Positions 2,961-39,900 of a stretch of 64,000 nucleotides of DNA are shown piece by piece. Origin of the DNA: Zootoca vivipara (taxonomy: Eukaryota); contig NC_083281.1 in assembly GCF_963506605.1 (NCBI RefSeq), positions 22,940,001 to 23,004,000 of the forward strand, read 5' to 3'. A model generated the notes under the pieces. The model was not told where the DNA came from, did no database searches, and saw only the letters and a list, made by a program, of their open reading frames with translations. Made by a program: the position numbers and the translations under genes. Every line of letters starts with the position of its first letter. The first letter of the stretch is position 1.

Positions 2961-5184
2961 CGCAGATGTGTAGCACTTTATTAGTTAAAATAACCTTTCA
3001 AGCCACGTTGGGTGGTTGTTGTTGTGTTTATTAGCATGTTATATATTTTCACGTTTTTGGTTCATAAAGCACCATGTGATCCTTGAATGAAGTGTTTTAT
3101 AGAAATATAATAAATGATATGATGGTGATGATGATTACAAAAAACCTGGTAACCTGGTCCATGAAACTAGTAGTAGCCTCTTAGAATGTCCACATATACT
3201 TTTGCTAGCACAACGGTGGTCTTAAAAAGGCAACAACTGTACACTTGTGCATGTATTTTTCCTTGGAAGACAACACTTTCTGTTTGGTAATCATTTTGTA
3301 AGATATTCCATAATGTTTGCAAAGAAACAGCAACAACAAGAGTCCATCTGACTTCTAGTTTACAGGTGCCTCTTTGCTTGGTTGACCTGAAACAGTATGT
3401 TGAAAAAAGCTGCTTCGCTAACTGCTGTTTACATTTCCTGGAAGCAGAAGCTATGAGGAGCATCTCCTTTAAAAAGAAGTGCATCACACATGGGCATAAC
3501 CTGAGTTGTGTATGAGGAAGGGAGCCAAGAGGGATTGAGTCTTTTGCTCACAACTTGGTTTCATTCTTACAGGTAGCAATGGCTGATTCTTCTGCAGTTG
3601 GTACGCCACTGTTGACTGAGCAACTTCTTACAAAGGACTGCAATGGGCTTGATGTTTCAAAAGCCCAGGAGCATCTAACAGTCTGTAAGCCAGAGCCTAT
3701 CTGTGTAGAGGTGAGCTCCACAGTGCTGCCCCCTGTCTGCCCAGGCACAAATGACAGAGAAAAAGGACTCCCTAGCAATAGTGCAATCTGTGAGTACTAT
3801 GGTTTTGTTCTTGCTTTTAGAATTTAAACGATTCTCCAGCTGGTGAAAGAGAGTTTCTAGCACCCTGTTATAAACAACTATTAAAAAGTTGCATTAGAAA
3901 TTATAATCTTCTTCCTTTCAGTATGTTTCTCTGCCAGCATTCTGAAATATGAACAAGGATATGACTGCATGACATCATGAGACACAGGTTTTCTGCATGG
4001 CACCATTTGCAGTGCAGAGCGCCAGCTCTAGGTCCATGCATGCAACCCAATGTATTGCCCAGGTTCTGCAGTTTCCTAGCTTTCATTAAAAAAATGAGGG
4101 GAAAGCTTCTAGCTCTCATAATTATAGAGGAAAATCTTTAAAACTATTTAATACTTACTTTCAGGTAAGTAACCACCGCCTTTAGGTGAGGAATGCCTGT
4201 CCACTTCTATTGCCTATGTCACTTTCATCCTGATAGTTTGCATGTGAGGCCCTTCTCCTAATCAACTCTTCATTCTCCCTTTATCCCTGCTGGGGAACAG
4301 CCAAAGTGTTCCACAGCGATTACTTGACTGGAGAAACACAACAGTGTGTAAAGACAGCTGCTGCTTGGTATCTCCCCTCTCCCCACTTCTGCTATCACTC
4401 TTCAACAGTTGCTGAAGGAGGAGTGTAGCTTATGCAACCACCTCAATAGCTTGTTTACAATGCTGACTTAAGCCTACATAGCTTGCGTAGTCCGAAGGTT
4501 GTGAGAATGAATAGTGTCCTGCTGATGAAAAACTGATTGCCAGGAAGGCAGACTTTTCATGGCATTCTATCCACCTGTTTCTCCTTCTCTTCAGGGAGGT
4601 TCTGCAAAGTAAACTGCAGGTTCTGCCAGGCCCTGCTTGATTCCCTGTGTTTCTCTTCATCTCCAGACAGCCTGGGTGCCAATCAGTGTTTTCACTGCCT
4701 GATCACCTTCCCAGATGAGAAGTTCAAGGAGCGGCACATGAAGCGGGAGCACCCGGAGGACTTTGTTCAGGCCAATCTGCGTGATGCTCTTTTTGTCTGC
4801 TTCATATGTAACAAGGCCTTTGAGAGTTCTCGTGCACTCATCTGCCACCAGCGGGGCCATGCGCCAGCCCCGCCTTCTGACTCTACTGACTGCTTGCGCC
4901 CTACCTTTGACTGCCATGACTGTGGCCGCCGCTTCAGCCAGTTGGCCAACTACCAGCGTCACCGCCTGGGCCATGCTGCGGGCCACAGCTTGCCTCACCA
5001 GTGTCCGGACTGTGGCAAGAGCTTCCGACAGCTTTCAAACTTGCGTCGGCACCAGGCTTTCCACCAGCAGACCCAGGAGTTGCTGCCCTCCCTCCCCTAT
5101 TCCTGCATGGAGTGTGGGGAGAGCTTTAACCAGGAGGCTGGGCTGCATGAACACTACATCCGCCATGCCCGTGGGGAGCTCTAA
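2571..5184 (+). CDS. ZNF576: Zinc finger protein 576 (C2H2), 3 coding exons, ~247 aa
   Basis: Exons 2571-2579, 3573-3789 and 4667-5184 join with GT-AG sites in phases 0 and 1 (744 nt). The last exon encodes CLITFPDEKFKERHMKREHPEDF...CMECGESFNQEAGLHEHYIRHARGEL, closely matching recalled human ZNF576 (CLITFADSKFQERHMKREHPADF...HYIRHARGEL). An alternative start at ATG 3579 is possible. Confidence 0.92.
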
Positions 5185-11204: not shown

Positions 11205-14200
11205 CTATTTCTCTGTGTAGGCCAGCAGCAGCACCGCCTCTGCATTCTCAGACAGTTCCACCACAGCTCGCTTCAACATCTGGTAGGTGGACTCAAAGGA
11301 GATTTCGGGCTCTATCTTGACACCCCGCCCCAAATAGGGCACATAGCTCCATGCCCAGCTGGTCAGGGAGGCCGGCTTGGTGATGAGGCTGAGCACATAC
11401 GCAGAGTCCAGTGGTTTAGCAAAGGGGCTCCGGATCACCCCCTGAAGCAGGCGGGGGCTTGTGCTGGTAGCCTGGGCAGTGTGCTCTAAGGAGGCCTCAT
11501 CCAGGCCAAACTCTATGCAGAAGCTGGCAATGGTGGCGGTGAGGTTGTCGACCACAGCCGGCTGAGGATGCTCCACACAGAAGAGGCAGCTCTGAAGGGC
11601 CTTTCCCCACACATCTTTCATCAACACCTTGGCCTTCCGCCTAACCACTCGGGATAGGACGGTCGGCAGGGCTTTCCTCAGAGCTTTTGTCTTCAAATCC
11701 GGAGCGGAGCTGCTGAGGGCTCCCAGGAGGAGCGGCAAGTCGAAGGTGTCTGGCTTGAGGCAGGAGACCAGGAAGACCTGTGGGGAGTCCACGCCATCCT
11801 TCTTCAGAGCTTCCTCGCAGCTCTTCTGCACCTGACCCTGCACTTCCTCTTTGGCGACGGGTTGGCTCCCAGGCCGGGTCTCCACATCCACATCTATCTT
11901 GCTCCTCACAAAGAAGAACTGCTTCCCTGCTGAGGTGATGGCTCTGGCCAGGCAGCTGTGGGTGTGCTTATAGCGCTCGGAGGCCACCAGCAGGAAGAAG
12001 TCGTAGCGGCTGAGATCCAGGTGGCTCACACCTTCCTCTGTCAGCCCCACTCCTGGCAAGTCCCAAAGGTAAAGGTTGGGGACAACTGGGAGTAGGTAGG
12101 GCATGGCTTTCCTCGTCATCTCAGTCACCCCAGTGGGGGCCGCATCCGGTTCCCCACAGCCCACCCCTCTCAGAGCATTAACCAGCGAGGACTTCCCTGA
12201 GCCAACTTCTCCTATCACGGCGACATCCAGTCGTATTTGTGTGGGGTCCGTCAACACGGATGAGATCACAGTTGGGACTTCTGACAAGCTGCCGCCCTGG
12301 CAGATTGCGTACAGCTCCTTAATCTTCTTCTGACTCACCTTGTTCAAATCCTCCAGGTTCCCATCGTGAGTTCTAGAGAGAAGTGAGAACAGAATAATAA
12401 ATATCCACAGTCCGGGGCTGCGTTTCCTCAGGAGTTGCACGCTGGCAGTTGGCAAGGCCGAACTGGGGTCGGAGGGGATAGCCAACCCATTGGTATTTCT
12501 GCAGCAGGGTCCCAGCACACTCCCTGCCTCCAGCTTCCTAGGGCCACCCAATGAGAAGGAAAGGCGAGCTTTTTAGCTACGGTATGTTCCAAAGTGAAGC
12601 GCTTAGGAACACTGAAAAGGTAAGGTGCTCCCATTTCAAGAGAATGGGCTGCAAGTTCTGTTATGCACAATGGGACTTCGAGGAAAACACAACTCCAAAA
12701 GAAGATATTGGAGGACTCCAATTCATTGCCCGTGTAAATAGCAGATCTAGCTAAAAGGTAACACACGGAGATCTGCATTGATTGTTTCAGTGCATCCCTA
12801 ATTATGATTATTATTGTAAAATAATTATAAGATGGTTGGCATGGTCTTAGAAGAAAGCATGGCTGTGAGGGGCCATCTTCAAATATCTAATGGACTGTCA
12901 CATAGAAGAAGATGGAGCAAGCTTGTTTTCTCCTGCTCTGGAGGGCAGGGCTCAAACCAATGGATTCAAGTTCCACGAAAGGAGATTCCAACTAAACATG
13001 GGGGGAAACTCTGATAGTAAGAGCTGTTTGGCAGTGGAAAAGACTCTCTCGGGAGGTGGTAGACTCCTTTCATTGGGGGTAAACAATGCAATATTTGCAA
13101 AGCACAATCTAGTGCAGGTGTGGGGAACTTTCGGTACTCCAGAGTTTGCTGAACTACAGCTCCCATCATCCCTAGCAATCGGCCTTTCCTCCTAGGGATT
13201 ATGGGAGTCGAAGTTCCCCAGATTTGTCACTGACGTATATTATGAGATACCACCAAAACGAAATTTGAGAAGCTTTTCCCCGTCTCCAGAGTTCACAGAA
13301 CTGTATGAAAGGGAACCCTGTTTTCAAGAATTTATCCTATTCTATTCCACCTATTGCTTTTTCACATTCCTGCCTTAGCTAATCCCAGCTGCCACATTCT
13401 GATGTTCCACTGGTCCTATTCTAGAAAGAAAGCTCATGACCCAAAAGCTTTAGCAGCAAGGTCCCCCCCCCCCGCTGTATTTTTTTTTTTGTGCTACTGA
13501 AAAAAGTTAGGGCTCCACCAAGCCTGCTAGTATCTTCGTTTGCAGGCGGCACATAGCCCTAACAACTTGCAGCTTGAACAAACACTTTTGCATGTCTACA
13601 TTCTGAGCAGCTGAATGATCCCTCCTACGGTGCAGCCACACCAGAATTATCTGCCTTTAGAAGAGCCTGGATGAAAGGACAGGACAGCAACTCATTTAGG
13701 GATGCAACAGGCAACCTCCTTTGCAGAAGGACTCTGGACTTACAGGAGCCTTTCATTACCTAATTTCCTTTTTATTTTCCAGGGCTTGTTAGGACCATTC
13801 TTATGGGACACAGCCTCCTCTTTTCAACAGTGGGGGAAAGAACACAGAAGCCAGATACAAACAACACAAACTACCTGTACTTTTTGGAAACAAATGGAGA
13901 AATTTTTGTTTCAACTAGCTTTTCTAGCTAGACGGCAAGGTTTCTGCCTTTTAAAACCAGGGTGGATTTGATTTAAATCAAATCGATTTAAATCACAATT
14001 TAAATCACTAGTCAGTAAGACTTGATTCAAATCATTTTTTTTACAGAAAGACTCATTCTTGCTGGTATAATCTTAATATTTACAACCAGATGAAGGTTTC
14101 ATTTTTGGAATAATAAATTTTCAGAGTTGTTTTTACAGTTATATAAAAAATTACTGATTTGGTTATACTATTAGAAATACATAGACAGATAATTATGAAA

Positions 14201-15700
14201 TTATGGTGAGGTTCAATAAGTTAACTGTTTATATTTGGAAAATTTTCTGCTGTGCTTTATTGGAAGGAGAAAAAAATCATTTCCTTGATAACAATTTATT
14301 TAACTAAAACAATAACATTATAACATATGTATCCATGTTTGTTAAATGATGTGGTTAAACAATTTATTTTTTTTAAATGATGTGGTTTTTTTCAAAAAAT
14401 AGTTTAACCACATCATTTAACAAACATGGATACATATGTTTTAGCACACATGAAAAACTTAAAACTTTATTTCCTGATGGACTACAGTGGTACCTCTGGT
14501 TAAGAAATTAATTCGTTCCGGAGGTCCGTTGTTAACCTGAAACTGTTCTTAACCTGAAGCACCACTTTAGCTAATGGGGCCTCCTGGTGCCACCGCGCTG
14601 CCAGAGCACAATCTCTGTTCTCATCCTGAAGCAAAGTTCTTAACCCAAGGTACTATTTCTGGGTTAGCGGAGTTTGTAACCTTAAGCGTTTGTAACCCGA
14701 GGTACCACTGTATAATGTAACCTAAATAGAAAACTATCTTTAGTAAGATTTTTCCTCCGAAAGTATTTTATTTTAAAAATCTGAATTTTAATAAAAAAAT
14801 CCAAGTTAAATAATTTTTTAATTTTTTTAAAAAAAAACCATTGATTTTTATCTACCGTTTAAAACCCATACTTGGTTGTTCTTGCACTCTTTTTTATTTT
14901 AGCTGTTTTCAAGGATCTCTCTGTAAATTGCTTTGGGGCCTACGTAGATACTGGAGGCAACTCACAAATAAGTAAATCAAGAGAGGCACCCTCTTCCCGA
15001 CTCACCTCTTCAAATTGAGCACCTCTCCTTCCAGGCTGTCTTCAAAGCGTGCAAACTCATATCTGTCCGTCTCCAGCCCTGACACCAGGAATACCTTCTT
15101 GGGGTCCACCCCATGCTTGGTCAAAACACCAGCTAGTTCCTTCCGGATCAGCCCCAGCTGCTCAGCCGGATTGTACCTGGATCTGAGCCGCCGCTCAGCT
15201 GTGTGCAGGTCCAAGTCCACCTTGGTGCGTGCCAGGATGAGGCCTTTCCCCTTCTGCTTGATGGCCTTGAGGACTTGGAGGTGGCTGTCCCTCAAGCCTC
15301 CATCCCCGACCACCACCACAAAGCAGCTGAATTTGCTCAGGTCGCCCAAGCGTTTGAGGTAGGCGGACGGCTTCTCCGACGCCTCGAAGCCCGGCAGGTC
15401 GTGCAGGGTGAGGTCTGGGTAGACAGGGTGAGCGTGGGCAACCGGTTGCTTCGTGGTCTCAGGGGCCTCTCGGAGATATGCCCATGGATCCGTCACCCGG
15501 CGGGGCTTGTCCAGGAGAGCCCCGACCAGGGTGCTCACCCCTGAGCCACGCTCTCCCAGGATCCCGACCTGGATCTTGAGGGTGTTCACACAGTCCACCA
15601 GCGCCTGGATTTGGGAAGCGGCACTGCTGGCGTTTTGGGCCTCATACTGGGCCTTCAGGATCTTCAGGTACGATTCGTCCAGGACGGAGGAACCGGCCAT
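11205..15700 (-). CDS. Immunity-related GTPase (IRG/p47) paralog with tandem GTPase domains, 2 coding exons, ~620 aa
   Basis: Exons 15700-15006 and 12372-11205 join across a phase-2 intron (AG|GTGAG...CTCTAG|A, Arg codon; 1863 nt). Domain 1 motifs: GERGSGVS, DLPG, TKVD. Domain 2 motifs: GEVGSGKS, TGVTEMT, WDLPG, YDFF, SKID, followed by the IRG helical C-terminus. An acceptor at 15709-15710 implies an upstream 5' UTR exon. Confidence 0.9.
12840..13075 (+). mobile_element. CR1 LINE 3' fragment
   Basis: Encodes DCHIEEDGASLFSPALEGRAQTNGFKFHERRFQLN, resembling a CR1 ORF2 C-terminus. Confidence 0.7.
13958..14858. mobile_element. AT-rich non-autonomous DNA transposon carrying a nested MITE
   Basis: Starts CAGGGTGGATTTGATTTAAATC and ends GATTTTTATCTACCG (degenerate inverted termini), with repeated GATTTAAATC motifs. 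Family not identified. Confidence 0.5.
14485..14710. mobile_element. Tc1/mariner(pogo)-type MITE
   Basis: TIRs CAGTGGTACCTC...GAGGTACCACTG flanked by TA on both sides. Confidence 0.85.
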
Positions 15701-16179
15701 GGCTGGAGCTGCAGAGAGGACGGAGGAAGGAAAAAAGAGAATACTATCTGCAGTTCTCAGCGTGCTCTTTAGGGATGCATGAGCAGATGCTTATCTCTGC
15801 CTGCCTCCCTCCTTCCCTTTCTCTCACACACATGTATTGACCATCCATACAGTGAGTTGAGGAAGTAGGGGGTCACCCATTTGATATCTGTCTCAGAGCC
15901 ACTTCCTTTGTTACCTTAATGGCCCATGCTTCGAGGGCCATTACCTCACCAGGAAGCTAGCCTGGGCTATACCAGGAAATGAGTGCCGTGCTGGATCCAG
16001 GAATTAGAAGGGTGCTCAGGCACATATCCTACCCTACGCCCCCAAAGGAAAAAAATCAACACAGTATGCTTATGTCTGTAGTATGGTTGGATTCCTCTTT
16101 GTAGAGTGCTCTCCCCAGGGAGGCTCGCCTGGAGCCTTCGTTCCATATCTTTAGGTGCCAAGCAAATAACGTTCCTGTA

Positions 16180-16545: not shown

Positions 16546-18649
16546 ACAACCAGGCCTTTGGCTAATTAAACACTCTATGGTCTTTAAAACTGTGAGGGGT
16601 ATCTATTGTTTTTGCTTGTTGCTATGTTATGTATTTTTTGGTGTTTTTTATATTGTAAGCTGCCTTGTAGTCCTCGGATGAAGGAGAGGAAGAAAGGCAA
16701 ATTTATAAAAGTGAAAATAACAACAACAACAGAGAGTTGCTAGGCACTGTCTGCAGTTAAAAGCTCTGCCTGCAGGATTACTATCTAATAGCAACCAGAG
16801 TCAAAAGGGAGGGAACTGGATAGTAAGGGATCACCAGTCCCCAAACGACAGGGAAAAGGTGCCTAGAAAAAGAACCCAGTAAGGCAGCCTGTATAAAGAA
16901 AGACGACTTTGGCTCCAGCATCAGACCACTAAAAATATGTCCCAGCCAGGAGTCCTGTTTCCAAAGCAAAGCCACCTCTGCCCACTTTAAACAAACAAAG
17001 CCAGCCCATGACCCCAACAGAGAAAAATCAAATATTTGGTTTCTTTTTTTCCTGTCAAAAACTAAGGGCTGCATCCAACCTCTACTCAGAGCAGTTCGGA
17101 TGAAATCAATGGGCCTCAGTTAGCTACGTCCTATTAATTTCAATGGGTCTACTTCTGAGCAAAGCAGCATTGGCTAGAACTCTAAATTTTGTTAAAGGAA
17201 CACTCTTAGCCGTTGGGGAAAACCTAGAGTTTATTAGAGAAGAACTAAGAACTACTCTCCTGGATCAGACCATGAAAGGCCTACCTAGTCCAGAAGCCTG
17301 TTCCCACATTGGCCAACCAGACACCAAAGGGAAGCCTGGAAGGGTGAACTGAGCACAATAAGCACAAGAACGGGCCTTCTCAGTCGTGGCTCCCCAGTTA
17401 TGGAACGCTCCCCCCATCATTACCTATATTTAGGCACAAGGCCACAAACCTTTCTCTTCTGCCAGGCTTTTAATTATCCACGGTCTCCATCAGTGGGTGG
17501 GATGCCTTTTAAATAAATAATAAATATGTACGTGTTTTCAGCTTTTACTAAAGTTTGTGCAGTTGGCTTTAAAAAGGGGGTTAGACAAATTAATGGAGGA
17601 GAAAACTCTCAGCGGTCATGATGGTTATATGCAACTTTCAGGATCAGCAGCAGAATATCAGTTCTATGAGGACAGTTATTGTTATTATTATAATTATTAT
17701 TGGTTGATTTAGTTATCGAACTTATCACTTAAAAAGCAACAAATGAAAAGCAACTCAAAAAGCAACTTGTATATTGAACCTAATCAACCACTAAAAGCCT
17801 TATTTCTTAACTGGTGCAAACAGAATGTTATGTCACTTGGCACCTGCAAGAGTGCCAGTTCTGCAGATCAAAGCATTTATGGGATGAGGTTGATCCTGCA
17901 GGTAAACTGGCCCCAAGCTGTTAAGGGGCTTTTTATGCTAATAGTAACATGTCAAAACCAACCACTAGCAAACTGATCACCAGTGCAGATCTCAGAGAAC
18001 ATTCTGAGTTGGTGGCCACATCACGGCACCACGCTTGGAGCTGCTGGTTCATAGCTCGTACTGCCTACGCTGACTGGCAGCAGCTATCCAGAGGACATTC
18101 CCAGGCCTACCTGAATATGTTGCCAGGCATTGAACCTGGTAACTTCTGCCTGCAAAGCAGATGCTCTTACCTCTGAGCTACAAGCCCTTCCCCTTGACAG
18201 CAAATCCCTTAAGAACAAGTGTGTTTTGCTGGAGGCAGATCTGGGGAACTGCTGGACTTTCCCAAATATGGGGGTCAGCCAATGGCTTCTTTGTCACAGA
18301 ATTGTGGTTGTAAACCAAGACCTTCAGAGAAACGTTTAATAATCAAAACAAGCCTGCCGGCTTCCATCTTGATAGGTGGAGGCCTTTCTGAGCACAACAC
18401 ACCGTCAATAATTGCCCTTGTTCGTTAAACTGCCCTTTTCCGTTTGTTTTTGAACATCAAGCCTGATGCGGAACAACGCCGAAGAGCTCAAAAGCTTGCT
18501 CACTATTTTGTGATCTTTTGCGGGATTGGTCCTAATACAGGTACAAATAAAGTAAAATCCAAGTGAGGATTTTGGACCCTGGACAAACGCGGCTAACTAT
18601 GATTTTTATATTTTAATTTATTTTAAAATAAATGTGTCTCTTTTGCGTG

Positions 18650-19400
18650 TCCCGGATCCCCACCCCCGACTCCGGTTCTTGTCTTACAGGTTAGGGAGAA
18701 TGCCAGCCACAAAAGGAACCCAGGAGTCCTGGATGACTGCCAGCCAGCCAACCCCACCCGGCCGCCCCCCAAAATGAAAAGGTTTCGGGAAGGGAGGTGT
18801 CCCAGGGGCAAAACCTACCCGTCCGTCGCCCGCCTGTCTGGGTCTTCTGTGCGCGGCGAGGCTTGGATACTGCTGCGCCCCTGCGCCCTGGCCCCAGATG
18901 ACGCGCAAAGCAAAATCTGGGAAACAGAAACCTCTTGGACGGGGGCGGAGACGGCGGCTCCTCCTCTTCCTCCCGGCTGGCTGTGCTTGGCAGGCGGAAA
19001 GGCTCCTCTGACGTCTCTGGGATGCGAAGGGAAAACAGATCAGAGCGCATCGGCAGGCGGGTGGGATGAGGAAGCAGCCAAAGGGGGACAACGCCAGGAA
19101 GCCGAGCGAGCGGTCCCGGGGCGCTGCCTTGTAAGCGGGTAAGCAAGCCCAGCCCGGCGGGTGTCTCCCCATCTTCTTCAGCCTCCATAAAACGAATTCG
19201 TTCTGCCTGCCTGAAGATCTTCCCGGCCTGATGGAAAAGGCAAAAATACTCTCCGGCCTCTTTCCGCATTAGTGCGCCGCTGTGTCTGCCAGATCGCTTA
19301 ATCAACCTGTTTTCTTGCCTAAGAATCAGCGGCCCTCTTATGCCATAGGCTCAACCCTTACGCCAAAACGTAGGAGAAGGGTCGCGGGCGATGACCGACT
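18650..19400. promoter_or_regulatory. Bidirectional CpG-island promoter of the two IRG genes, with an ISRE
   Basis: CpG island between the divergent genes. Candidate first-exon donors on both strands: minus GG|GTAGGT at 18818, plus GTAAGC at 19131 or 19139. ISRE-like GGAAACAGAAACC at 18920-18932; CRE-like TGACGTC at ~19009. Confidence 0.7.
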
Positions 19401-19883
19401 TCAGGGGCTGGTGGCTTCAAGGCTGGATTAATGCAATGCTTTTTTTGTGAGGCTTCTCTTGCAAATTGATCTGGAAGCTGCAGGATGAGGCCATGTTAGC
19501 ATATAGCACTCCTGCTCGGAGATCTGCACCAGCTGCCCGTTTGGGGTGAAAACCTCCCCGCCAGCATATAACACCTTGCTTGCGGGGGTTGTACCGTACT
19601 GCTTGCCGATCTGCTACCCAGGTTCAATATTATACCAGGTTATACCATTCAGGACCAGGTTACCTGGGAGATACACCATGGCTGCGGTCCTCAGCTTGAG
19701 GCCAGACTCATTCCATTTTGGTGGTTTGTGTGTGTGTGTGGACTTAACATATATACAGCCAAGCTCATTGCGTTTAATCACAGCCTCTAAGTAATGTTGT
19801 TGTTTCTCTCTCTCTTTCCACCTCTCCCCTTTCCTTATGTTTCCGCAGCATCTCTTGAGAAGCCCTGTTTCCCTGCATCCAAC

Positions 19884-22800
19884 ATGGCTCTAAAGACCCC
19901 CCAGGGCTCTGTGCTGAGCTCCCCAGAGCAAGGGGATGTCTCCGTGGTCCTTGTGGGAAAATCAGGGGTGGGAAAATCGGCTCTCCTCAATGCCCTGCGT
20001 GGGATGACCGAAAACGATGTCGGATGTGCTCCGTTGGATGCCCCACCTAAATCCGGGGGCCCTGTCATGTACCCCGACCCATCCCATCCCAATTTACTGA
20101 TCTGGGAACTAGCTCTGGATTGTGAGGGGCAGGCCGACCGGTGGCTGAAGGAGGCTGACGTTTTTGTCGTGGCGACAGATGGCAAGTTTGACGAGACTCA
20201 TGCCCACCTGGCCAGGGAGGCCCGGGCGGCTGGCAAGAAGGTCTATTTTGCCCGCACCAAGGCTGATTTGGATCTTCATACCCTCAAGCGGTTGATGGGG
20301 GAGCACTACAACCGGCCCGAGGCCCTGCAGGCCCTGCGGGGTGTCTGTGCTGAGTCGCTGGGGGCCCACGGTCTCGGGGAGCCCTTTGTCTTCCTGATCT
20401 CTGCTTTTGAACCCTTCGCCCTGGACTGCCCCCAGCTGCGAAAAGTGTTGCTGGACGACGTCCACACGTACGAGAGGTAAGTCAGGCAACCAGCTCAAGC
20501 GAGCCGTAGGAACATAGAATCATATCAATGAATGAACATGACTAAGATTCATAATGACGATAATAATATTGTGGAACTAGAAAAGGGTTGCCGGAAGTGA
20601 TCAAGGGGATGAAGCCGCTCCCCTATGAGGCTCAGGGCTTTTCAGTTTAGAAAAAAGGTGATTAAAGGGAGAGGACACTATAGAGGTGTGTAAAATTACG
20701 TGTGACACAGAGAAAGTGGATAGTCATAATCAGGCATCCCCAAACTGCGGCCCTCCAGATGTTTTGGCCTACAACTCCCATGATCCCTAGCTAACAGGAC
20801 CAGTGGTCAGGGATGGTGGGAATTGTAGTCCAAAACATCTGGAGGGCCGAAGTTTGGGGATGCCTGGTCATAATACAGTCGTATCTTGGTTGTCAAACGC
20901 CTTGGTACTTGGACGTTTTGGCTCCCGAACGCCGCAAACCCGGAAGTCAGTGTTCCAGTTTGTGAGCGTATTTTGGAAGCCAAATGTCTGTTTCTGCTGT
21001 CAGAATTGTTTCTGGGGCCAATCAGCCAATCGGAAGCCACGCCTTGGTTTGCGAACGTTTTGGGAAGCCAATAGGGGTCTCCCAACAACTCTCATTGTAA
21101 CTGGCTGGCCACTGTGAGAATCGGATGCAGGATTGGACAAACCTTTGATCTGATCCACCAGGGCTCTTACGTTCTTAAGTTTAATGGAAGAAAACCTACA
21201 GGGACTTCATGAACAGAGTTCTGAGACCAGGTGCCTGTGGGCATGGGCACGTCGCTCATAAGGACAAGGGCCTTTGGCTGATGTTCTTGTGGAGCGACAA
21301 GGAATGTAAATTACAAGCGCAGGCCGATATTTATATCCTGGTGGCCTTTGCTCGAGTGTCATCAGGACTTTTGCTCAGAGCAAAGCAACCAGAGAAGTGG
21401 CCTTGTTGGTCTCTGTTTGTGCCTCCCCTGTGGAGAAAACAGTGTTTGTTTACAAGCAACAACCCCCACCTCCAAGATGCTCCTGCTACCCCGAGTTGCA
21501 ATCAAATGAAGCTGTGTCAATCCAGTGTAGTGCAGTGTTAACTTTCTCGGAATTCCAAACGGGTCCACTGGTCCAAAAAGGGTGGCAACCTTTTAATAAG
21601 TCGACCACATATGAAAAAACGTTCCCTCTACCTCTTTGGACTTGTAAAAGGGTAAAAAGGGTGTTGGGAAATGATCACATAATGAATTGAATTTTGTTTT
21701 TCAAATGTCCCCCCCGCCCCAAACAACAACAACAACAACAACAACCAGAGTGCTTCCTGTTGGGGATAATTTAGACTGAAATTCCCAGGTGTCAAAAAAG
21801 GATACCATATTTATGGATGCAACAACTGTGGCCCATGTTTTGTTAGCTCCCATATGGAAATCGAGTGAGGTCCCAGCCAAAGAAGAATGGCATCTTAAGT
21901 TGACAGAATATGCACAACTTGGAGACTTAATATATAAAATAAGAGAACAAGAAGAACATACGTTTAGAGAAGATTGGAAAATGTTTATTGAATATATGGG
22001 AAATAATTGTGTACAGCTGAAAATGCTGGCAGCATTAAGATACATTCAACAGTGCAAATAAGTTTTGATGGATGCAATAATGGAATACTGAATGGTATAG
22101 TTTTTTGTAAAATATGCAGGGATTTATGATATGTAAAATGAACCAGGGAAGAAGGGAAGTTATTGATATCTTTAGGATGCAAAAATGAGTACTGTATTTT
22201 TCGCTCCATAGGACGCACCTGACCATATGACGCACCTAGTTTTTAGAGGAGGAAAACAAGATTTTTCTTTCTTTCTTGAATTGTCCTAGGCATAGCAGCC
22301 AACTCCTAGAGGCCTACGTGCCTTTGCCCCCCCCATTAAATATTTGAGGAAGCTTCTTTTGCAAAGGGGGAAAGCTCCATTTTTGAGGATCAGCTCAAAG
22401 TTGTGCAGCTTTTTTTGCAAATGGGAAAAGCCCCTTTTTTGTGGGGGGGTGGTGTGTCAGCTCAGAGTTGTCCATCTTTTTTGCAAAGGGGGAAAGCTCC
22501 ATTTTTTAGGATCAGCTCAAAGTTGCTGAGTTTCCTTGCAAAGGGAAAAAAATTCCTGTTTTTATGGGGTTCAACTCACAGTTCTGCAGCTTCTTCTATA
22601 GGAAAGGAAAGAGGCCCATTTCTACAGTTTCCAGACAGATAATCTAACCAGTCAGTTACATGTCTCCCTCTGCAGACAATAATTGAGGCCTAGGCAAGGG
22701 GCCGGGAAGGGAGCTAGCTCTCTTATCTCCCTTCCCGATCTCTTGCAATCAGCTGCTGAGCGGGTTCCTTTCTGCTCATTCCCTCTTGTTAGCCTTTAGC

Positions 22801-24444
22801 TCTTTCTTAAAAAAAAACCAAAACAACAACCATGATCTGCCTTTAGCCCCTGGGCAATTCAGCTCCAGGGACCATGCATTCGCTCCATAAGACGCACAGA
22901 ACCTCCTCTTACTTTTTAGGAGGAAAAAAGTGTGTCTTATGGAATGAAAAATACGGTAATTTAAATTGTAAAATGAAAAATTTAATAAAAATTGTATAGA
23001 AATAACAAAAAGTGTGGCCACCTTTGAATGAGCTTAGTTGCTGTGGAATGCCTGCTGACCAATGGGGTGGGAAATGGGAACTGGAATGGAGGGCTCCACA
23101 ATACAACATTAATTTCATATGATATTAATTCTAGCCATTGGATACCAATGATGTTAATATAATAGGAGATCAACTATAGTTACACTATTAATCCCAGTTC
23201 TTGCTCCCTCTCCCTTGCTGTGTCCTGTTTGCCCCCACAGGGTCCTAAAGCCCACTCGCTTGGACTACGAGGTGATCAGCGAGCAGGAGATTGCAGAGAT
23301 CCAGGAGGCCTATGAGCTGGGAGGCCTCTCGGAAGTGGTGACCCGCATTCAGTGCAGCCTGGAGACCCTCTGGAATGCCCATCTTGACATTGGCATCACG
23401 GGGGAGTCGGGCGCTGGGAAATCCACCTTTGTCAACGCCTTGAGGGGTGTGGGCGATGAGGATGAGGGAGCTGCGGAGACGGGCGTGACAGAGACCACAG
23501 CCCAGCCTACGCCATATCCTTACCCCGCCCACCCCAATGTCATCCTGTGGGATCTCCCTGGCATTGGCACACCCAACTTCCAGGCTGAACGCTACCTAGA
23601 AGCGGTGGAGTTTTCTCGCTACGACTTCTTCATCATCCTGGCCTCGGAGAGGTTTAAGGAGAACCACGTCCGTTTGGCCAAGGCCATTGTCAAAGAAGGC
23701 AAGCGGTTCTATTTCGTGCGCACCAAGCTGGACAATGACCTGGAGTCCATGAGGAGGCGGAGGAACCCTCCAGCCGACGAGGAAGTCCTGGAGCAGATCC
23801 GGACTGACTGCCGGGAGAAGCTCGCCAAGGCCGGGCTGGCAGACACCAAGGTTTTCTTGCTCAGCAGCTTCGAGATGGACAAGTTTGACTTCCAAGTCTT
23901 CGAGGAAACCCTGGAGCAAGAACTTCCGAGCCACAAGCGCCACGCCTTCCTGCTGTCGCTGCCCAACGTCTCCTCGGTCATCATAGACAAGAAGAGGCAG
24001 CTCCTTCACCAGGAGGTTTGGAAGGTAGCTCTTATCTCCAGCTTGGTGGCCGCCGTCCCTTTGCCGGGCCTGGCCTTCACCTGCGATGTCTCCATTTTGC
24101 TGAGGAAGCTGTCCACCTACCGGCAGGACTTTGGCCTCGATGCAGCGTCCTTGACCCGTCTGGCCGAGCGGTCGGGGAAACCACTGGAGGTCCTGAGGGC
24201 CGAAGTCCACAGCACTCTAGGCCGGAGCATCAACAGGGAAGTGGTCATTGGGTTGCTGGGGAAGGCCACTGGGACAGGCTTGGTGGTGGCCAATTTCTTC
24301 ATCCACCGGATTCCGATTTACGGAGCCCTGGCATCCGGCGGGATTTCCTTCCACACCACTTACTACATGTTGAGCCAGTGCTTGGAAGAGCTGGCTAATG
24401 ACTCCCAAAGGGTCCTCATGAAGGCCTTTGAAAGCGAGGTCTGA
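19884..24444 (+). CDS. IRGQ: Immunity-related GTPase Q orthologue (tandem GTPase domains; second domain IRGC/IIGP-like and intact), 2 coding exons, ~598 aa
   Basis: Exons 19884-20476 and 23241-24444 join across a phase-2 intron (AG|GTAAGT...CACAG|G; 1797 nt). N-terminal QGDVSVVLVGKSGVGKSAL matches recalled human IRGQ QGDVTALFLGPPGLGKSAL. RLDYEVISEQEIAEIQEAYELGGL matches QDGFEVLGAAELEAVREAFETGGL, and VPLPGLAFTCDV matches APLPGLGWACDV. The gene lies near ZNF576. IRG family membership is certain; the symbol is by inference. Confidence 0.85.
20731..20866. mobile_element. hAT MITE with 8-bp TSD
   Basis: TIRs CAGGCATCCCC...GGGGATGCCTG; perfect TSD GTCATAAT. Confidence 0.9.
21750..23010 (+). mobile_element. 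Decayed L1-clade LINE 3' end, interrupted by a DNA transposon
   Basis: Encodes VAHVLLAPIWKSSEVPAKEEWHLKLTEYAQL..., like an L1 ORF2 C-terminus. The 3' UTR resumes after 22958 and matches the copy at 28.7-29.0 kb. Confidence 0.75.
22192..22956. mobile_element. Tigger/pogo-like non-autonomous element nested in L1
   Basis: Imperfect TIRs CTGTATTTTTCGCTCCATAGGACGCAC / GTGTGTCTTATGGAATGAAAAATACGG with TA on both sides; internal ~60-bp tandem units. Confidence 0.8.
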
Positions 24445-30927: not shown

Positions 30928-33900
30928 ATGAAGTTTCAGTTGTCCCTTGTGATCTTCATATTCTGCCTTGGCGCAGGTAAGTCTCAGGTGTATCTGGCTG
31001 CATGTGCACATTGTGTGATGTGGGAACTGAGTGGGTTGGTCTCTAGAGAGCATCTCTTGGGCCAAGCCCTGCTAACTCCAGCAAGGCTTGCACAGAGGGC
31101 AATTCAGGTGGATGGGGACTAAAATGTCTGAAAGATATGCAGCTATGTAATATATTGCAATTAATTTTCTAGCCCTCTAGAAGTGGACTTTTGTGGTACT
31201 TAGATCACAGGGGAAGGGGCAGAATAGCTTTATCCCCATTACCTTTTGTGTTGTCTCGCTTAGGCTGAAATCCTATATACATTGAAATGAGAGTATGTCC
31301 CATTGAACTCAATAGGACTTCCTGTGTCACCAGCTATAGGAGGGGGTCATAAATATGGCTAAAACTCGTGGGCTGGAGAAAGGGGCTGTTGGGTTTTATT
31401 AAGGGCTCCTCAATTCTGGCTCTCCCCACTCACAACAAAATTTGAGCTTTCAAATTTAGTTTGCAAAAGCCACAGTGAATTTGTTCAACCGCCATATAGC
31501 TAACTTTACAATGCAATCATATGCATGTTACTTTTTTTCTTTTCCCGAAGTAGCACTTACAGTGCTTCCACTTACAGTGCATAAGATTGAAGCCGTCGTT
31601 GAGCCCAGATCCCACCGAGATCAGAGGGGTGGGGTTGAAACATTAGTCGAAGCAGAAGTGGTGGTTGGTTTGCATTGGACTGGTAGGGCAGAAGGCAAGG
31701 AGCCCAACAGTAGGTGGCGCTAGAGCCCAATACAGGAAGAGTCAGAGGCAATGACAGGCAGAGGCAACTAAGTCTGCTTTTGTCCATACCTTTCTTCCTT
31801 CTTAGAGGAATTTGAGACTAAGGAGGAAGAAACTGACAAGCAGTTCAGCTCTCTAGACTGGTTGTACCCTCCGTCTTACCCAGAGCCCTGAAACTGTCCT
31901 CCCTTCCTCCTTACTGTACATCCCATTCCTCCAAATGCCACTTTTAACCCAGTTCCACCTGCCTCTTCCCCCAGTTCCTCCCTTCGCTTCCCCCCCTGTC
32001 CATGGAAGACTACAACTGTCACACGCACACAGGGACCTTTCTTCCTCTCCAAGTCACTTACTACAGATATGGATCATCCAACTTTTTCTTCCTGCCCCTC
32101 TTCCTTTCCCCACCTTTAGAACCTTGGGAGACAGCCCATGAAAGCAGGGTGATGGCAGACCGGTGCAAATATTGTATAAAGAGAAATGTGTCCCTTCAGA
32201 TGCCACAAGCTTATACCGCGATGAAATCAGTTACTGTACCTATATGAACAAGCTACTACTGTACTAGCTATTCTTATGACTTAACATCTCAAAAGCTGGA
32301 AGTGGCCTCTCTGGGCCTCTGAGAGGGCCTGAGCACCCCCACTGCAGGTTAATGTAGCATGGAAAAAGCAGACACTGTCTTTGTGTCTTTCTGCAGCCGA
32401 CAGCTTGACATGCCAGAAGTGCTTGAGCAAGAATGGGAAGTGTGCACAGAACGAAGTGGAGGTTTGTGGCCAGTCTCAAGACGCTTGCTTCATTGAGACC
32501 AAGGACTACGCTGGTTGTAAGTACATACCCTCCATCTTTCCTCCAGTGAAAATAGGGATTTCCCATTCAATACTAATACTAATACTAATAATTGTTTATT
32601 TATACCCCACCCACCTGACTGGGTTGTTCCAGCCACTCTGGGCAGCTTTCAACATATAAACATAATAAAAAAATGTTAAACATTTTTTAAAAGAAAACCC
32701 TTCCCTATAGAGGGCTGCCTTCAGATGCCTTCTAAAGGTTGTATAGTTACTTGGCTTGGGGATCGCATCACCCCATGTCCTCCAACATTTCTCCAATGAA
32801 AATAAGGACATGGTGGCGCTGTGGGTTAAACCACAGAGCCTAGGGCATGCCAATCAGAAGGTCGGCGGTTCGAATCCCCGCAATGGGGTGAGCTCCCGTT
32901 GCTCGGTCCCAGCTCCTGCCAACCTAGCAGTTTGAAAGCATGTCAAAGTGCAAGTAGATAAATACGTACCCATAATTTAAATACTTGCTATAACATAAAA
33001 AATCCCTGTACTTTAAAGTATATCTCATCACAGAGGTGAAAATTGACATGGGGACCTGTGCACCTGCCAGACTGCTCACCAGCGGTGGGGAATTTCAAGG
33101 CCCTACTTATTCTTCTTCTTTGAGTTTATTTACAAAATGATTTGCACTGGACCTGGACCAGACATAACATCCTTTGCATATCTAAAATGATGCTTGCAAT
33201 AGTGCCCTGCTCTGGCAATGGGTTAACTCCTTTCTTTGATCTTCTGTTTGCAGTGGATGCAGGAACGGTGAAACTGGGCTGCGGCGACTCGAATTTGTGC
33301 CGCCGCTATCAGAAAGGGAACAGGGGATCTTTAAGCTGGTCGATGTATTGTTGCTCCTTCGATCTATGCCAGCCTCTGACACGTGATGGTATGTGGTACA
33401 GAATGACCGCTCCCTGCATTAACTGGGGGGTGGTGGCTTTTGTGTGGTCACACGCAGCCCCCCCGGAGACGACTAGACCCCCGTCAAGGTAGCCGGCTTC
33501 GCTGTCCCCCCCCCAAGCTGGATACCTGGAGGTTCCCGCCTAGCCTCGTCGATTAGCCAAACCCGGCTGGGGGGGGGGCCTTGCCAAGGGAGTTGGCCAG
33601 GTAGAGTTAGGACCGCCCACACTCACAATAGAGGGTGTGTCAGGTGTCATTATTCCTCCCGGGGGTCGCCTGGGGCTTGGGGGGTCTCAGCCTGTCCACG
33701 CAAATGGTGCATGCACATGTTGATGTGAACAGAATTTAGCTGTGAGGCTATGTTGGGGGCAGTGATAAACACTTTCATGAAAAAATCACCTCAGTGCTTT
33801 GCCAGTACAGTCATACCTCAGTTTAAGTATGCCTCGGTTTGAGTATTTTTGGTTTAAGTACTCCGCGAACCCGTCTGGAACGGATTAATCCACTTTCCAT

Positions 33901-36900
33901 TTCTTTCAATGGGAAAGTTCGCTTCAGGTTAAGTACAGACTTCCGGAACCAATTGTGTTTCTAAACCGAGGTACCACTGTAACAAACAAACAAACAAACA
34001 AACAAACAAACAAACAAACAAACAAAAATAAATAAGCCTATTCAACTAATTAGTCCTGCTAGTGGACGTCCATGCGAGGACTTCTGCTAGCAGAGTGGGG
34101 CTTCCCTCTCCTCTCCCCTCGTGTGCCCCCTGAAATTGGCTTGGAGCTTGGGGGGTGGGGGAGAGACCCTCAGAATAATATGCAGGGGCAGGAGAGGGAA
34201 TAATGTTCTGTCAGGGGGAGCTGGAATAATAATATAATAATAATTTATAATAATGATATAATATAATGATTTATACCCCACCCATCTGGCTGAGTCTCCC
34301 CAGCCACTCTGGGCGGCTCCCAATCGAACATTAAAACAATACAGCATTAAATATTAAAAGCTTCCCTAAACAGGGCTGCCTTCAGATATCTTTTAAAATT
34401 AGGATAGCTGCTTATTTCCTTGACATTTGATGGAAGGGTGTCCACAGGGTGGGTGCTGCTACCGAGAAGGCCCTCTGTCTGGTTCCCTGTAACCTCGCAA
34501 TGAGGGAACCGCCAGAAGGCGCTCGGAATACTTGTGTTGATGGAAAATTTCCTTAATGAATTCCTAATAATAAAAAGTTGTTGTTGTTGTTATTTTGTTC
34601 TACTTTTTGCACAAGTGTCTCAAAGCAACACACCAATCAGCGTAAAGCAACCTATACAGTAAATGGAAAACAAAACAATTGAAAGCCGAAACCTAATGTG
34701 TTGTATCCGATGCCAGTCCTACTCTGAGTAGACACGCTGAAATTAATGGAGAACTTGCAACCCAACCTCTCCATCCCCCTAACATGCTGTAGGTCTGGCC
34801 ACCACAGAACAGCTCCCCAAGGAAAAAGAAACCGATCACCAACTGCTGCAAAGAAAAAGGTTAACCCTGAAAAGTTATCAGTGTTGGTGCCCGGCAAGCC
34901 TTCATGGGGTTAGCATTCCTTTTTTAAAATTTTTTTAAAAATAGACTTTATTAGAAAGTTTTAAAAAGGTATACACACACTAGAAAATTTAAAGTAACTT
35001 AATAACATAAGATAACTTAGCAACTTAAATAGCATAGCATAACAAAGGTAACATAAATAACCTAACTGCATATTTAAGCCACCCAACATAAATTAATCAA
35101 CATAAATAAACAAATCAAGGTTGATCTAAATAGATTAACTCAATCAAACTACAAATAATAAACAAGATCAACTTAGATAAGCATAACATAACGTAACATA
35201 ACATGACATAACATAACATAACATAACAACATAACGTAATATAACATAACAAAAAAAGAAAAAGAAAATTATCCCCAGATCAGATCTTAACACATGGGCC
35301 TATCTCCATGAAATCCATTCATTTTAGATTAAAATTGGCTTCCAATCGCCAATATATCGCTTCCCTTACTATTGTTTTCCTCTTTAGTTTGCTTTCCCTC
35401 TTATTAAATCCAACTGAATTATTCCTACATGTTTTCTCTATTCCAGACAAATCACTAGCTCTGTTTTGATATTTTCTTTTTAAAAATACTCTTCCACGTA
35501 TCTCCATTCTGTTTTTATTCTCTGTTTTGATATGTTCCTAATTACCGCCGTCATTCTTGCTAGGTTCATGAACTCTACTACTTTAATTTGCCACTCTTGG
35601 ATTGTTGGTATTTCTGTTCCTTTCCATTTCTGAGCTAATACTAATCTCACCGCGGCACACGCATATAAGAAAATATTAATTCTATCTCTAGGTATATTTT
35701 CTGGGATTAGGCTTAGTAGAAAATATTCAGGTTTCTTTTCAAACGTAATTTTTATCATTCTCTTCATTTTTTCATATATATCATTCCAAAATTTATATAT
35801 TTTTTTACATTCCCACCAACAGTGAAAATACGTACCAGTTTTTTCCTGGCACTTCCAGCATTCTTTTGTTTCTGTCTTGTAGATTTTAGCTAGTTTTTCT
35901 GGCGTCAGGTGCCATCTATATACAAGCTTCATCATGTTTTCTTTGATTCCTGAACACGCTGTAAATCTCATTGTCGATCTCCACAATTTATCCCACTGCG
36001 TTTTATAAATTGGTCTTCCTACATCCTGAGCCCATTTTGTCATCACAGATTTTATCTCCTCGTCTTTTAATTCCCATTCTAACAAAAATTTATACATCTT
36101 AGACAATGATTTAGCCGTATTATCAATCAAAATTTCTTGTAATTTAGATTTCCCCTCATTAAATCCTATTTCTTTATGTTTTTTAAATAAACTTTGTATT
36201 TGTAGGTAATGTAGCCAGCTCATGGGGTTAGCATTCCATAGACTACAGAAAAGGCCTATTCTCTCATCATCACACATCATCTGCCAGAGGGAACACACAG
36301 AGAAGGGCCTCCAATTAGGGGATGTGACAGAGCCGGCCCACCCATGAGGCAGGGTGAAGAGTCCGCCTCAGGTGGCAGAAGTGCAAGAGGCGGCATTCTG
36401 CCCTCCCCACCTCTTCTGCTGCCAAGAGGGAGGTGTTACAGCGCACAGTGTTGCTGCTTATCTTCCCCAGGTGGAATGCTCTGAGGAGCACCCTGGCTCC
36501 TGCTGAGTTTGGTGACAGCCAGGGTGTTCCTGCACGCCATGTTGCTGATCAGCTGACCCCTCCGGGGGGGGGGGGAGGAGCCAAATGGCAATGCTCTGAG
36601 GAGTGCTCTGGCTTTTGCCAAGTTTGCTGAGAGCTGGGAAGAGGCGGCAGAAGTGGTGGGCATATGGGTGAGAGGGGGCGGTAGGCGGCAATTCCCATTT
36701 TGCCTCAGGTGGTGAAATGGACTGGAATCTGATGATCTGTGTCTCTCTCCCTGCTACTCACTGTTGCTTCCAACAGTTCACGGAAATGGATCAAAGAATG
36801 GAGTGCAGTGTCAAACCTGCATCGGGAGCGCAGCTGAATGTGGCCGCAATGCGCCCACAGGGCCATGCTATGGGAGTGAAGACCACTGTGTGCAGATCTC

Positions 36901-39900
36901 CCAGCGCTTCCTGCCAGGTATTGCCAAGTGGGTACCAAAGCATTCAAAGCACAGAGGCACGGGGATAGGAGAGACTAAGGCATCGCTAAGGGTGTGATGG
37001 TCACTAGCCAATAGGTGCAGGGGAACCTGTGCAACCGCAACCTGCAGAGTAATCACCGTTGCAATGGATGCACATGGTGTTGGTGGTGGGAAAACGTATT
37101 TCAAGGTTTTCTGAGTTGCTCTCCTATGTTTTTAAGACTGTGTATGTTTTGCAATAAAATACAATTGCAGAGCTGGTCTTTCTAGGCTAGACAGGCAAAG
37201 CACTCCAAAAACCTTTAGAGGCAACAGTTCCTTTAATTAAATGCTATCTGTTTTTTTGTTCTGACCATGTTACTTCTTCCTGCTGGATTCGTGATAAATT
37301 GCCTCTTGTTTGAGGGCTTCTGTTTCCTGCTTGGTGGGTCAGTAGGTTAATTACTAATTTCCTTGCATATTTTAATACTCCTTTTATAGTGAAAGAGAGC
37401 TATTTAGCCATAAAGGAAAGGAAAGGAAAAAACACGAAGGAAATAATTTGCTACTCTCCTCCGCTACAGTGGGGAACGGAAACTGACTAATATGGGGCAA
37501 TTAAGGGGCAATGCACCACTAACCCATATCCATGCAATAAAATGAGTGGAGCCAGCTAACTGGAAACTTCAAATTACAAGAGACCTTTGCTGAAAGGGGC
37601 TTACTTTTGAGTAGACATAGATGGATCTTGGCCATTGGCATCGCTGGATAATATAGAACTATATTAAGTTCTGTGTGAAATCTGTTTTAATTGCGCTTCC
37701 AGCTAATTGCAAAAAAAGGAACAGTGCCTCAATGCTAAAGGGCAGTGGATACTGTGGAAGCTATTCCACAGAACAGCAAAATAACACCCGCCATGCAAAT
37801 TTAAACATACACAGTGTATGGAGAAGCTGTAATATGTATTTAGTGAGATAATTTGTTGTTGTTTAGTCGTTTAGTCGTGTCCGACTCTTCGTGACCCCAT
37901 GGACCATAGCACGCCAGGCACTCCTGTCTTGCACTCCCTCCCGCAGTTTGGTCAAACTCATGTTCGTAGCTTCGAGAACACTGTCCAACCATCTTGTCCT
38001 CTGTCGTCCCCTTCTCCTAGTGCCCTCAATCTTTCCCAACATCAGGGTCTTTTCCAAGGATTCTTCTCTTCTCATGAGGTGGCCAAAGTATTGGAGCCTC
38101 AGCTTCACAATCTGTCCTTCCAGGGAGCACTCAGGGCTGATTTCCTTAAGAATGGATAGGTTTGATCTTCTTGCAGTCCATGGGACTCTCAAGAGTCCCA
38201 TGGACTGCAAGTTGGAGTTTAAAAGTTGGAGTTAAAAGTGGAGTAGTGTCCATTGGAAAACAATCTACAGTACTAGCTGCATTTCTTAGATCCAAAAATG
38301 GTCCTGTTGTGCATGGACATCACCTGATGATTGCTTCTCCAGGTGAAGAAACAGAACCCATCATAAAGGGGTGTGGAGGCAGTTCTTTTAAGGACACATT
38401 GGTGGCGTACCAGATCGGGAGAGATTTTGCCTTTGTTGAGCAAAAGGTCTGCAGCAGTTCCAACTGCAACAACAGGAGCTTCCCAGGTAAATGACAATTG
38501 CCGTGCTCTGATAACCTTCTGTCAGGTAGGTATAGGATCCTGCCTGTATGCCAAATAATAACAATCTAGGACACAGTCTGCAGGGAAGTTCCCCAGCACA
38601 AGCCCCATGGGAATGAACAGGAGAGCTGCAGGAGAGTCGTCGCGCCTCTTCCAAATTCATATTTTGAAAAATAGGAAATTCACGGAATGTTTAATTTCGG
38701 TAAAAATTGGATTTCACTGTTGTACTCATTTTTCAGAAGATAGAGGTCCTGTCTTGCGCCCAAGATTGAGGGGGTCCAGCGCATGGCACAAATGGGTGCA
38801 CATTGCATGCACTATTCTGTAAGGGATGCTTTAGCTGAGATTCCTGCATTGGCAGGGGGTTGGACTAGGTGACCCGTGGGCTCCTTTCCAACTCTATGAT
38901 TCTATGACTTCATGTGTATGATGTTGCATCATTGGAGGGGGGAGTCTGAGTGCGGAGCCCGGCGCAGAGGAGAGGGCCAGCAGAACTCCACTGGTGCAGC
39001 ATTGCGTAAAACTCAGCATTTCTGTAAGTCGCCTTGAGGCATTTTGGAGAAAAGTGACTTAAGAAATTGAATAGATCATCATCACTAAAGTCTCTCCCCC
39101 CCTTTTCTTTACTCTACAGTCATCACTTCCGGACAGCCCAATGGGCTGCAATGCTACACCTGCCAGGAGTCTGGGCATGGGGAGTGCACTCAGGACAGAC
39201 TGCAAGTTTTAAATTGCACAGGAGTCATGGATCAGTGTGTACATGTCTTCGACAGAGGTAAGGAAGCGGCAAGGGTGCGTATACAGAGGTGGCTGAGGAC
39301 TGGGATGCATGCCTGTTAGCCCGATCAGATGCTAAAGAGGGCACAGCTCCTTATCTCAAAGAGTTACAGAGAAGCATGGATCAGAAAAACTGCTGCTACA
39401 GGAATCCATCCTTTGGGACACACTGCTTGAGGGCCATGTGAAATTACCTTAAACAAGGAGGTTATTTGTTACATCTTTGTTCTGGCTTTGATCCCTCCCA
39501 ACCAGCATCTACAGTGACAGTGGTACCTCGGTTTTTTATTGTCTCGGAAGCTGAATGCCGAGTTTTGAATGCCAAAAACCCAGAAGTAAATGCTTCCGTT
39601 TTTGAACGCGCCTTGGAAGTCGAATGGCTTCCGCTGAGTTTTTTTCTCCATTGAATTTGCAGGCTGCCCTTTGCGCCTCGGTTTTCGAACACTTCAGAAG
39701 TCGAACGATCTTCCGGAACGGATTATGTTTGAAAACCGAGGGACCACTGTGCCAGGAGCAATTAATTCTGCAGCACCTCTCCGTCAGGTAGGAAATAACT
39801 CCTGACAGAGAGGATGCAGCCAAGTGACCTGTTCTCAGGGAAGGTGCCCCATTGCTTCTCTGTGTGAGTCGCTGTTCTTGGTGTTCCCTCTTTTAGGCAC

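Follow-up and report, generated by a model that had tools for sequence, protein, structure and literature searches.

A LIR-type motif of a lizard IRGQ ortholog falls on human LIR1 and recurs at the N-terminus of single-domain IRG proteins

The window analysed here, i.e., a whole stretch of 64,000 nucleotides of Zootoca vivipara DNA, contains two tandem IRG genes, and the one on the plus strand encodes a short motif, DYEVI, at the place of the GABARAPL2-binding motif LIR1 of human IRGQ. Judging from sequence comparison, the motif probably binds the LIR-docking site of GABARAPL2, and the same motif is carried by non-mammalian single-domain IRGs, from which IRGQ would have inherited it. The parts of this reading differ in strength. 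By analogy with human LIR1, it is quite likely that the lizard IRGQ motif binds GABARAPL2 in the same way. That the motif of the single-domain IRGs binds ATG8 proteins alone is close to an even question, with the balance slightly against it.

The plus-strand gene encodes 598 aa in two coding exons (Table 1). Its splice joint is present in RNA reads (19 in X20, 5 in X21 and 0 in X19) and in 1 contig of X2; the joint of the minus-strand gene (15006/12372) is also supported by RNA reads. In the translation of the spliced gene, the letters GACTACGAGGTGATC read DYEVI in frame. An earlier note on this DNA had described a LIR consensus directly after the splice junction; LDYEVI does fit this consensus, and DYEVI begins 22 nt (7 codons) 3' of the acceptor rather than right at it. 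The two genes stand head to head with a CpG-rich stretch between them (window 18400-19600), the first exon of the minus-strand gene extending down to 18819; this stretch is likely a promoter shared by both. An ISRE-like element, GAAANNGAAA at 18921, was set aside, as it gives no evidence of interferon induction.

Table 1. Features of the window (positions counted from its first letter)
Feature	Position	Strand	Basis or remark
ZNF576-like exon, synteny marker	4537..5184	+	Atlas first match 'Zinc finger protein 576 family', 0.98
Minus-strand paralog, last coding exon	11205..12372	-	
EDLNKV, decayed counterpart of the motif, Leu for the aromatic residue	12336..12353	-	Sequence and alignment
Minus-strand paralog, first coding exon	15006..15708	-	Whole protein 620 aa
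IRGQ ortholog, coding exon 1: N-terminal G domain, G1 GKSGVGKS, degenerate G3 (WELA), G4 TKAD	19884..20476	+	ATG at 19884, GT after 20476
Glu90, likely equivalent of human Glu74	20151..20153	+	Invariant in 22/22; end-offset alignment
IRGQ ortholog, intron	20477..23240	+	GT-AG, phase 2
IRGQ ortholog, coding exon 2: linker end, motif, complete GKS-type IRG domain	23241..24444	+	AG before 23241, stop at 24444
LIR-type motif D206-Y207-E208-V209-I210	23263..23277	+	Sequence, ortholog and profile comparison, AF2 model of P0003
SEQEI: S-x-x-E cap and first turn of helix A, acidic residues after the core	23278..23292	+	Sequence; model helix starts at 212
Exon 2, G1	23401..23424	+	
Exon 2, switch I T-E-T	23479..23499	+	
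Exon 2, G3	23551..23562	+	
Exon 2, G4	23722..23733	+	

The identity of the plus-strand gene rests first on its N-terminal domain, which matches human IRGQ (8Q6Q, chain C) in profile searches with E values of 3.5e-4 to 8.7e-4. Profile positions 14-209 match human residues 3-188 (E 3.5e-4), and since the match ends at 209 on one side and at 188 on the other, Tyr207 falls on human position 186, a placement given by profile coordinates rather than residue by residue, the human sequence compared comprising the residues up to 192. Human LIR1 is located at aa 186-189 (PMC13172515), in agreement with the earlier alignment of the motif with the human GABARAPL2-binding LIR. Two other queries gave no match to 8Q6Q, namely the first domain of the minus-strand paralog (at E<=1) and a 44-residue linker. 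Lizard residues 14-100 also align with human IRGQ 3-84, and with the end offset of 16, Glu90, which is invariant in the 22 aligned orthologs, lies on human Glu74. According to PMC13172515, this human residue is a GABARAPL2-specific second contact outside the docking site, and binding requires it as well. The second domain forms a clade with newt and lungfish proteins named IRGQ-like by NCBI (100/97, in a tree without mammalian IRGQ). Both window genes lie between ZNF576-like and Ly6-type exons, so synteny cannot tell the two paralogs apart; ZNF576 and PLA2-inhibitor/Ly6 genes are presumably also the neighbours of human IRGQ. An Atlas search with the IRGQ ortholog P0003 was not discriminating, as its best matches were IIGP clusters, with the IRGQ cluster following at rank 15 (0.96). 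By its first-domain match, its clade and its flanking genes, the plus-strand gene is identified as an IRGQ ortholog, and the comparisons support DYEVI as the lizard homolog of human LIR1, Tyr207 standing on Phe186.

Elsewhere in the window, two convergent multi-exon genes (~32400-42330 on the plus strand and 49300-57120 on the minus strand) are of the Ly6/uPAR, PLA2-inhibitor type by their cysteine pattern; two of their exons were searched against Pfam and gave no match. An AT-rich stretch at 35480-36367 (minus strand) holds an open frame of 295 aa, also without a match in Pfam, which we take to resemble the end of a LINE ORF2.

The pattern on its own says little. The LIR core [WFY]-x-x-[LIV] is present in YEVI, but as a bare core it has 8 matches in the 598-aa protein. 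LDYEVI is the sole match to the stricter xLIR pattern (xLIR and strict cLIR as in PMC5119064), and at least one xLIR match appears in 67% of 2000 shuffles of the protein. The xLIR pattern being thus at chance level, it is conservation, and not the pattern, that establishes DYEVI as real. The strict cLIR, with two acidic residues upstream, is found in 0/24 IRGQ orthologs; however, it recovers just 11/27 proven LIRs in the data given by PMC5119064, so its failure is no bar to LIR membership. As to other sites, YERV at residues 196-199 was dropped, being helical in the AF2 model. EEVL at residues 378-381 (23779-23790, plus strand) is one residue off the WEVL that the earlier note had mentioned; it lies at about the presumed place of human LIR2 (aa 421-424) and may be its precursor, so that the statement of the earlier note that this second LIR falls in an insert missing from the lizard may be wrong.

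Conservation among reptiles, which had been proposed as a check, holds in the alignment: an aromatic residue (Tyr or Phe) stands at the motif in 25/25 orthologs (P0001-P0025; the site lies outside the coverage of P0026, P0027 and P0029), and the full core in 20/25. The five exceptions are advanced snakes (P0016, P0017, P0019, P0020 and P0022), with Phe or Pro as the fourth residue (FEEF, FEEP, YEEF). The three residues preceding the aromatic one vary, and Tyr and Phe interchange freely. Outside reptiles, the core is kept in a caecilian (P0030, YYII), a newt (P0312, FEVI) and a lungfish (P0309, FDII); two sharks differ at this position, with FDRI in one and IERV in the other. No bird or crocodilian ortholog was found among the 120 matches listed, which is no evidence of absence. 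The IRGQ-like proteins of newt (P0312/P0444), lungfish (P0309) and catshark (P0310) have three G-domain modules in 783-833 aa, and the reptile and caecilian orthologs two.

This interchange of residues bears on whether the motif could be a linear motif for another partner, i.e., a tyrosine-based sorting signal, a phosphotyrosine site of the form Y-x-x-hydrophobic or a FIP200-interacting region. By the definitions of these families, YEVI and YDII do match Y-x-x-hydrophobic, and Tyr is present in 40 of the 50 rows of our alignment set A3. On the other hand, Phe takes its place in 16/22 IRGQ orthologs and in 8/50 A3 rows, which is incompatible with Tyr-dependent motifs, and the structure of the human homolog has been solved as a LIR. 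We hold another partner of this kind to be quite improbable, while a role of the FIP200 type could coexist with a LIR.

In the second domain of the lizard protein, and in all 22 aligned orthologs, the key residues of G1 (K/S), G3 (D/G) and G4 (K/D) are invariant; the first domain of lizard IRGQ is already degenerate at G3. Human IRGQ does not have these GTP-binding motifs, and their loss in the long C-terminal exon is what defines a 'quasi' GTPase in the account of PMC1297648. As they are intact in the lizard and lost in human, the LIR-type motif predates that loss, as had been suggested before. We regard the lizard gene as IRGQ by descent and probably not as a quasi-GTPase, its intact motifs predicting GTP hydrolysis.

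The motif lies 45 residues N-terminal of G1, just before helix A, a position that corresponds to the N-terminus of a single-domain IRG. The earlier note had held the motif to be specific to IRGQ and its inter-domain linker, and here it fails: two single-domain paralogs of the same genome, L016 and L017, 1.7-2 Mb away, carry the more acidic EEYDII at this position, and the 'linker' motif equals the N-terminal motif of a single-domain IRG, the source of the second domain. Among the own-genome IIGP matches (30, 28 of them parsed), L020 and L022 have the bare core without acidic flank, and the rest, except the plus-strand gene, have none. The stretch G000:C6:24.13-24.93 Mb (L016-L043) is itself a cluster of ~25 IRG copies, several of them identical, most without the motif and one with an internal stop. 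Across species, the single-domain matches that cover the site show the core in 47/55, xLIR in 36/55 and the strict cLIR in 31/55; these are matches listed by likeness to the query, i.e., those covering the site among the 57 of at most 460 aa in P0052-P0120. They span bichir, sturgeon, coelacanth, lungfish, amphibians, turtles and squamates, and the teleost single-domain IRGs P0332 and P0364 also carry the core. In a broader sample of 150 representatives of 50% clusters (133 domains), the core stands 45 residues before G1 in 13/133 domains, versus 0-6 at 20 other offsets. The other 120 diverged IRG domains are without it, and two of the 13 appear to be chance matches; among the species with the core are a loach and a gharial, and one distant protein has it too. 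The aromatic residue is absent from the IRGs of marmot, hamster, deer-mouse, chinchilla and echidna, from rabbit IRGC and from the mouse structures, with the Ile and the helix cap mostly kept.

These distributions have to be read on a tree. Our more careful tree, built from 38 of 294 C-terminal domains with the motif columns removed and rooted on three distant proteins, places the tandem genes in one clade (98/98) and groups them with the motif-bearing single-domain proteins (91/89, unstarred), and the motif needs 7 changes of state on it. A FastTree of 110 rows places the tandem and the single-domain groups apart, and the deep branches are poorly settled, with the 91/89 grouping on one side and this separation on the other. 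On sequence evidence, the motif appears to date back at least to the common ancestor that the second domain of IRGQ shares with these single-domain genes, and its repeated loss, rather than gain, would be the simpler reading. It is likely an ancestral N-terminal motif of IRGs, of LIR nature, inherited by IRGQ.

The minus-strand paralog has EDLNKV at the equivalent place, as noted before, and this had led to the proposal that the LIR is specific to IRGQ and that labour was divided between the two paralogs. In the window, the core is indeed in the plus-strand gene only, and 32 of the 41 parsed minus-strand orthologs are without the aromatic residue. As to sequence, specificity to IRGQ is nevertheless refuted by L016 and L017 and by the single-domain matches. 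At the motif position, the readable minus-strand orthologs (41/46) have Leu in 28, Phe in 9 and another residue in 4. A division of labour is further opposed by the full FxxV core of 7/41 of them, all snakes where named, and by the aromatic residue of the salamander and lungfish orthologs (Trp in lungfish). Moreover, lungfish, salamander and caecilian all possess the minus-strand paralog; the duplication must therefore be old, and the two window genes split before lungfish and tetrapods parted. We therefore consider this proposal very improbable. In the minus-strand lineage, the motif seems to have decayed rather than to have been always absent, and to have been restored to FxxV in snakes. Advanced snakes reverse the lizard pattern, the fourth residue being lost in their IRGQ and FxxV being present in snake minus-strand proteins within P0259-P0279; a hand-over of the motif from IRGQ to its paralog is possible. 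A match to xLIR and cLIR at residues 9-14 of the minus-strand paralog was rejected, as it lies in helix A and its Tyr is missing from most orthologs.

The motif could also be an old structural element, i.e., a helix A cap and hydrophobic staple with the aromatic residue packed on the helical domain, acting as a LIR only in IRGQ through the second contact, the single-domain IRGs then not being ATG8 binders. Several observations go in this direction. An I-I-S helix cap is common to mouse Irga6, Irgb6 and Irgb10, which do not have the aromatic residue, and Ile is invariant in the 50 rows of A3, rows chosen as motif bearers. Since the cap Ile210-Ser211-x-x-Glu is kept in IRGs without the aromatic residue, the conservation of Ile is explicable without a binding partner, and Ile210 may pack on helix A. 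The minus-strand lineage retains a hydrophobic residue at the motif (Leu or Phe in 28 and 9 of 41), which hints at a packing role, and human binding requires E74 besides LIR1. Against this, the solved mouse Irgb10 and Irgb6 structures have Ser at the aromatic position, so this residue is dispensable for the fold, and the motif falls within coil of low confidence in the AF2 models: just ahead of helix A for the IRGQ ortholog P0003 (pLDDT <50 at 197-209, helix from 212), and at the N-terminus in L016 (pLDDT <50 at residues 1-20, the motif Tyr being Tyr20). A structural role also leaves unexplained the two acidic residues that precede the Tyr of single-domain proteins in the 31 cLIR matches. We judge the structural reading rather unlikely, and a docking motif the better account.

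A complex model bears on the same question. L016 residues 8-58 modelled with bird GABARAPL2 (P0188) scored 0.37, the best of 3 controls scoring 0.02, with a run-to-run contact agreement of at least 49% and a partner pLDDT of at least 56. This is a low score, which favours the structural reading: in calibration, the mark was reached by 51/78 solved and 2/108 mismatched pairs (in eukaryotes, 39/65 solved and 2/126 unrelated), and scores up to 0.60 comprised only 5/78 solved pairs, yet all 4 mismatches that passed. The model was run without alignments, its calibration set holds no peptides, and it outputs no contacts, so the interface may bypass the motif. It lends weak support to a complex of the L016 N-terminus with GABARAPL2, and its pass possibly reflects memory of solved LIR-ATG8 structures.

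If the docking reading holds, the mechanism would be as follows. LIR cores fill two pockets of ATG8 proteins, and acidic flanks assist. Hydrophobic pocket 1 would take up Tyr207, and pocket 2 Ile210, while the Asp and Glu flanking the core would face the basic rim; the N-terminal pseudo-G domain, with Glu90, would provide the second contact, which would be the basis of the GABARAPL2 preference of human IRGQ. The EEYDII of single-domain IRGs would work by itself, recruiting an active GTPase to ATG8-decorated membranes. By gene fusion, this N-terminal motif would have become a 'linker' motif; in mammalian IRGQ it would then have survived the decay of the GTPase motifs, and in IRGC and the interferon-induced IRGs of mammals the GTPase would have been retained and the aromatic residue lost. 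Tentatively, then, direct binding of ATG8s by active single-domain IRGs of fish, amphibians and reptiles, through a canonical N-terminal LIR, might be the ancestral route of IRGs to ATG8-marked membranes, and IRGQ would be a mammalian relic that has the LIR without the enzyme.

Interest lies mostly in this wider reading, by which a LIR would be an ancestral feature of active IRG GTPases, and which we entertain seriously without favouring it. Such an N-terminal LIR on active non-mammalian IRGs would explain the origin of IRGQ LIR1, and single-domain IRGs may once have docked directly on autophagy-tagged membranes. If so, rodent effectors would have kept the enzyme and lost the LIR, hence their need for ATG8 conjugation together with weak ATG8 binding at best. 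If the IRGQ copy alone works, the lizard motif would simply be the expected ortholog of a known one. Reptile IRGQ combines LIR1 and a Glu74 equivalent with GTPase motifs that are still intact, which would make it a suitable intermediate in which to study nucleotide control of ATG8 binding. LIR1 was reportedly defined in Herhaus 2024 (Cell), whose alignments may show it outside mammals; our literature searches listed none that deals with reptile IRGQ or describes an N-terminal LIR for IRGs outside mammals. Among LC3-type genes of the same genome, L001 (G000:C7:62.02 Mb) and L002 (C6:48.46 Mb) are intronless open copies matching the exons of L005/L015 and L009, and are likely young retrocopies.

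Several known systems can be set beside the lizard proteins. IRGC and the fish irge/irgf proteins have the single-domain architecture of L016 and L017; rabbit IRGC has TILM at the motif position, and the literature searched holds no description of a LIR in IRGC or irge/irgf. The mouse GKS effectors Irga6, Irgb6 and Irgb10 share fold and catalytic motifs with the lizard second domain (E 1e-74 to 1e-87; Foldseek), but are without an aromatic residue where the motif would lie, Irgb10 and Irgb6 having Ser there. To arrive at vacuoles, mouse GKS IRGs depend on the LC3/GABARAP conjugation system according to PMC4990996, which reports only occasional weak interaction, proposes a candidate motif FFII inside the G domain and names, in its Discussion, the targeting of IRGs to LC3/GABARAP-marked vacuoles as an open question. 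In the AF2 models of P0003 and L016, the FFII region is a core strand. IRGM, an IRG-family member of the GMS subfamily, is reported to interact with mammalian ATG8s (PMC5839791), apparently not through this motif. The closest comparison is human IRGQ LIR1, solved with GABARAPL2 (8Q6Q), with which the lizard motif shares its position after an N-terminal degenerate G domain, its aromatic-x-x-aliphatic core and the Glu74 equivalent. Two differences stand out. Unlike human IRGQ, the lizard protein has a second domain with intact G1-G4 and switch I residues. Residue 10 of GABARAPL2, Ser in the mammal and fish matches, is Ala in lizard (L046:6976-7010, G000:C6, about 56.741 Mb), bird and turtle. In human, phosphorylation of Ser10 by TBK1 breaks the IRGQ-GABARAPL2 complex, and S10A keeps most partners (PMC13172515); with Ala10, reptiles and birds would be without such an off-switch.
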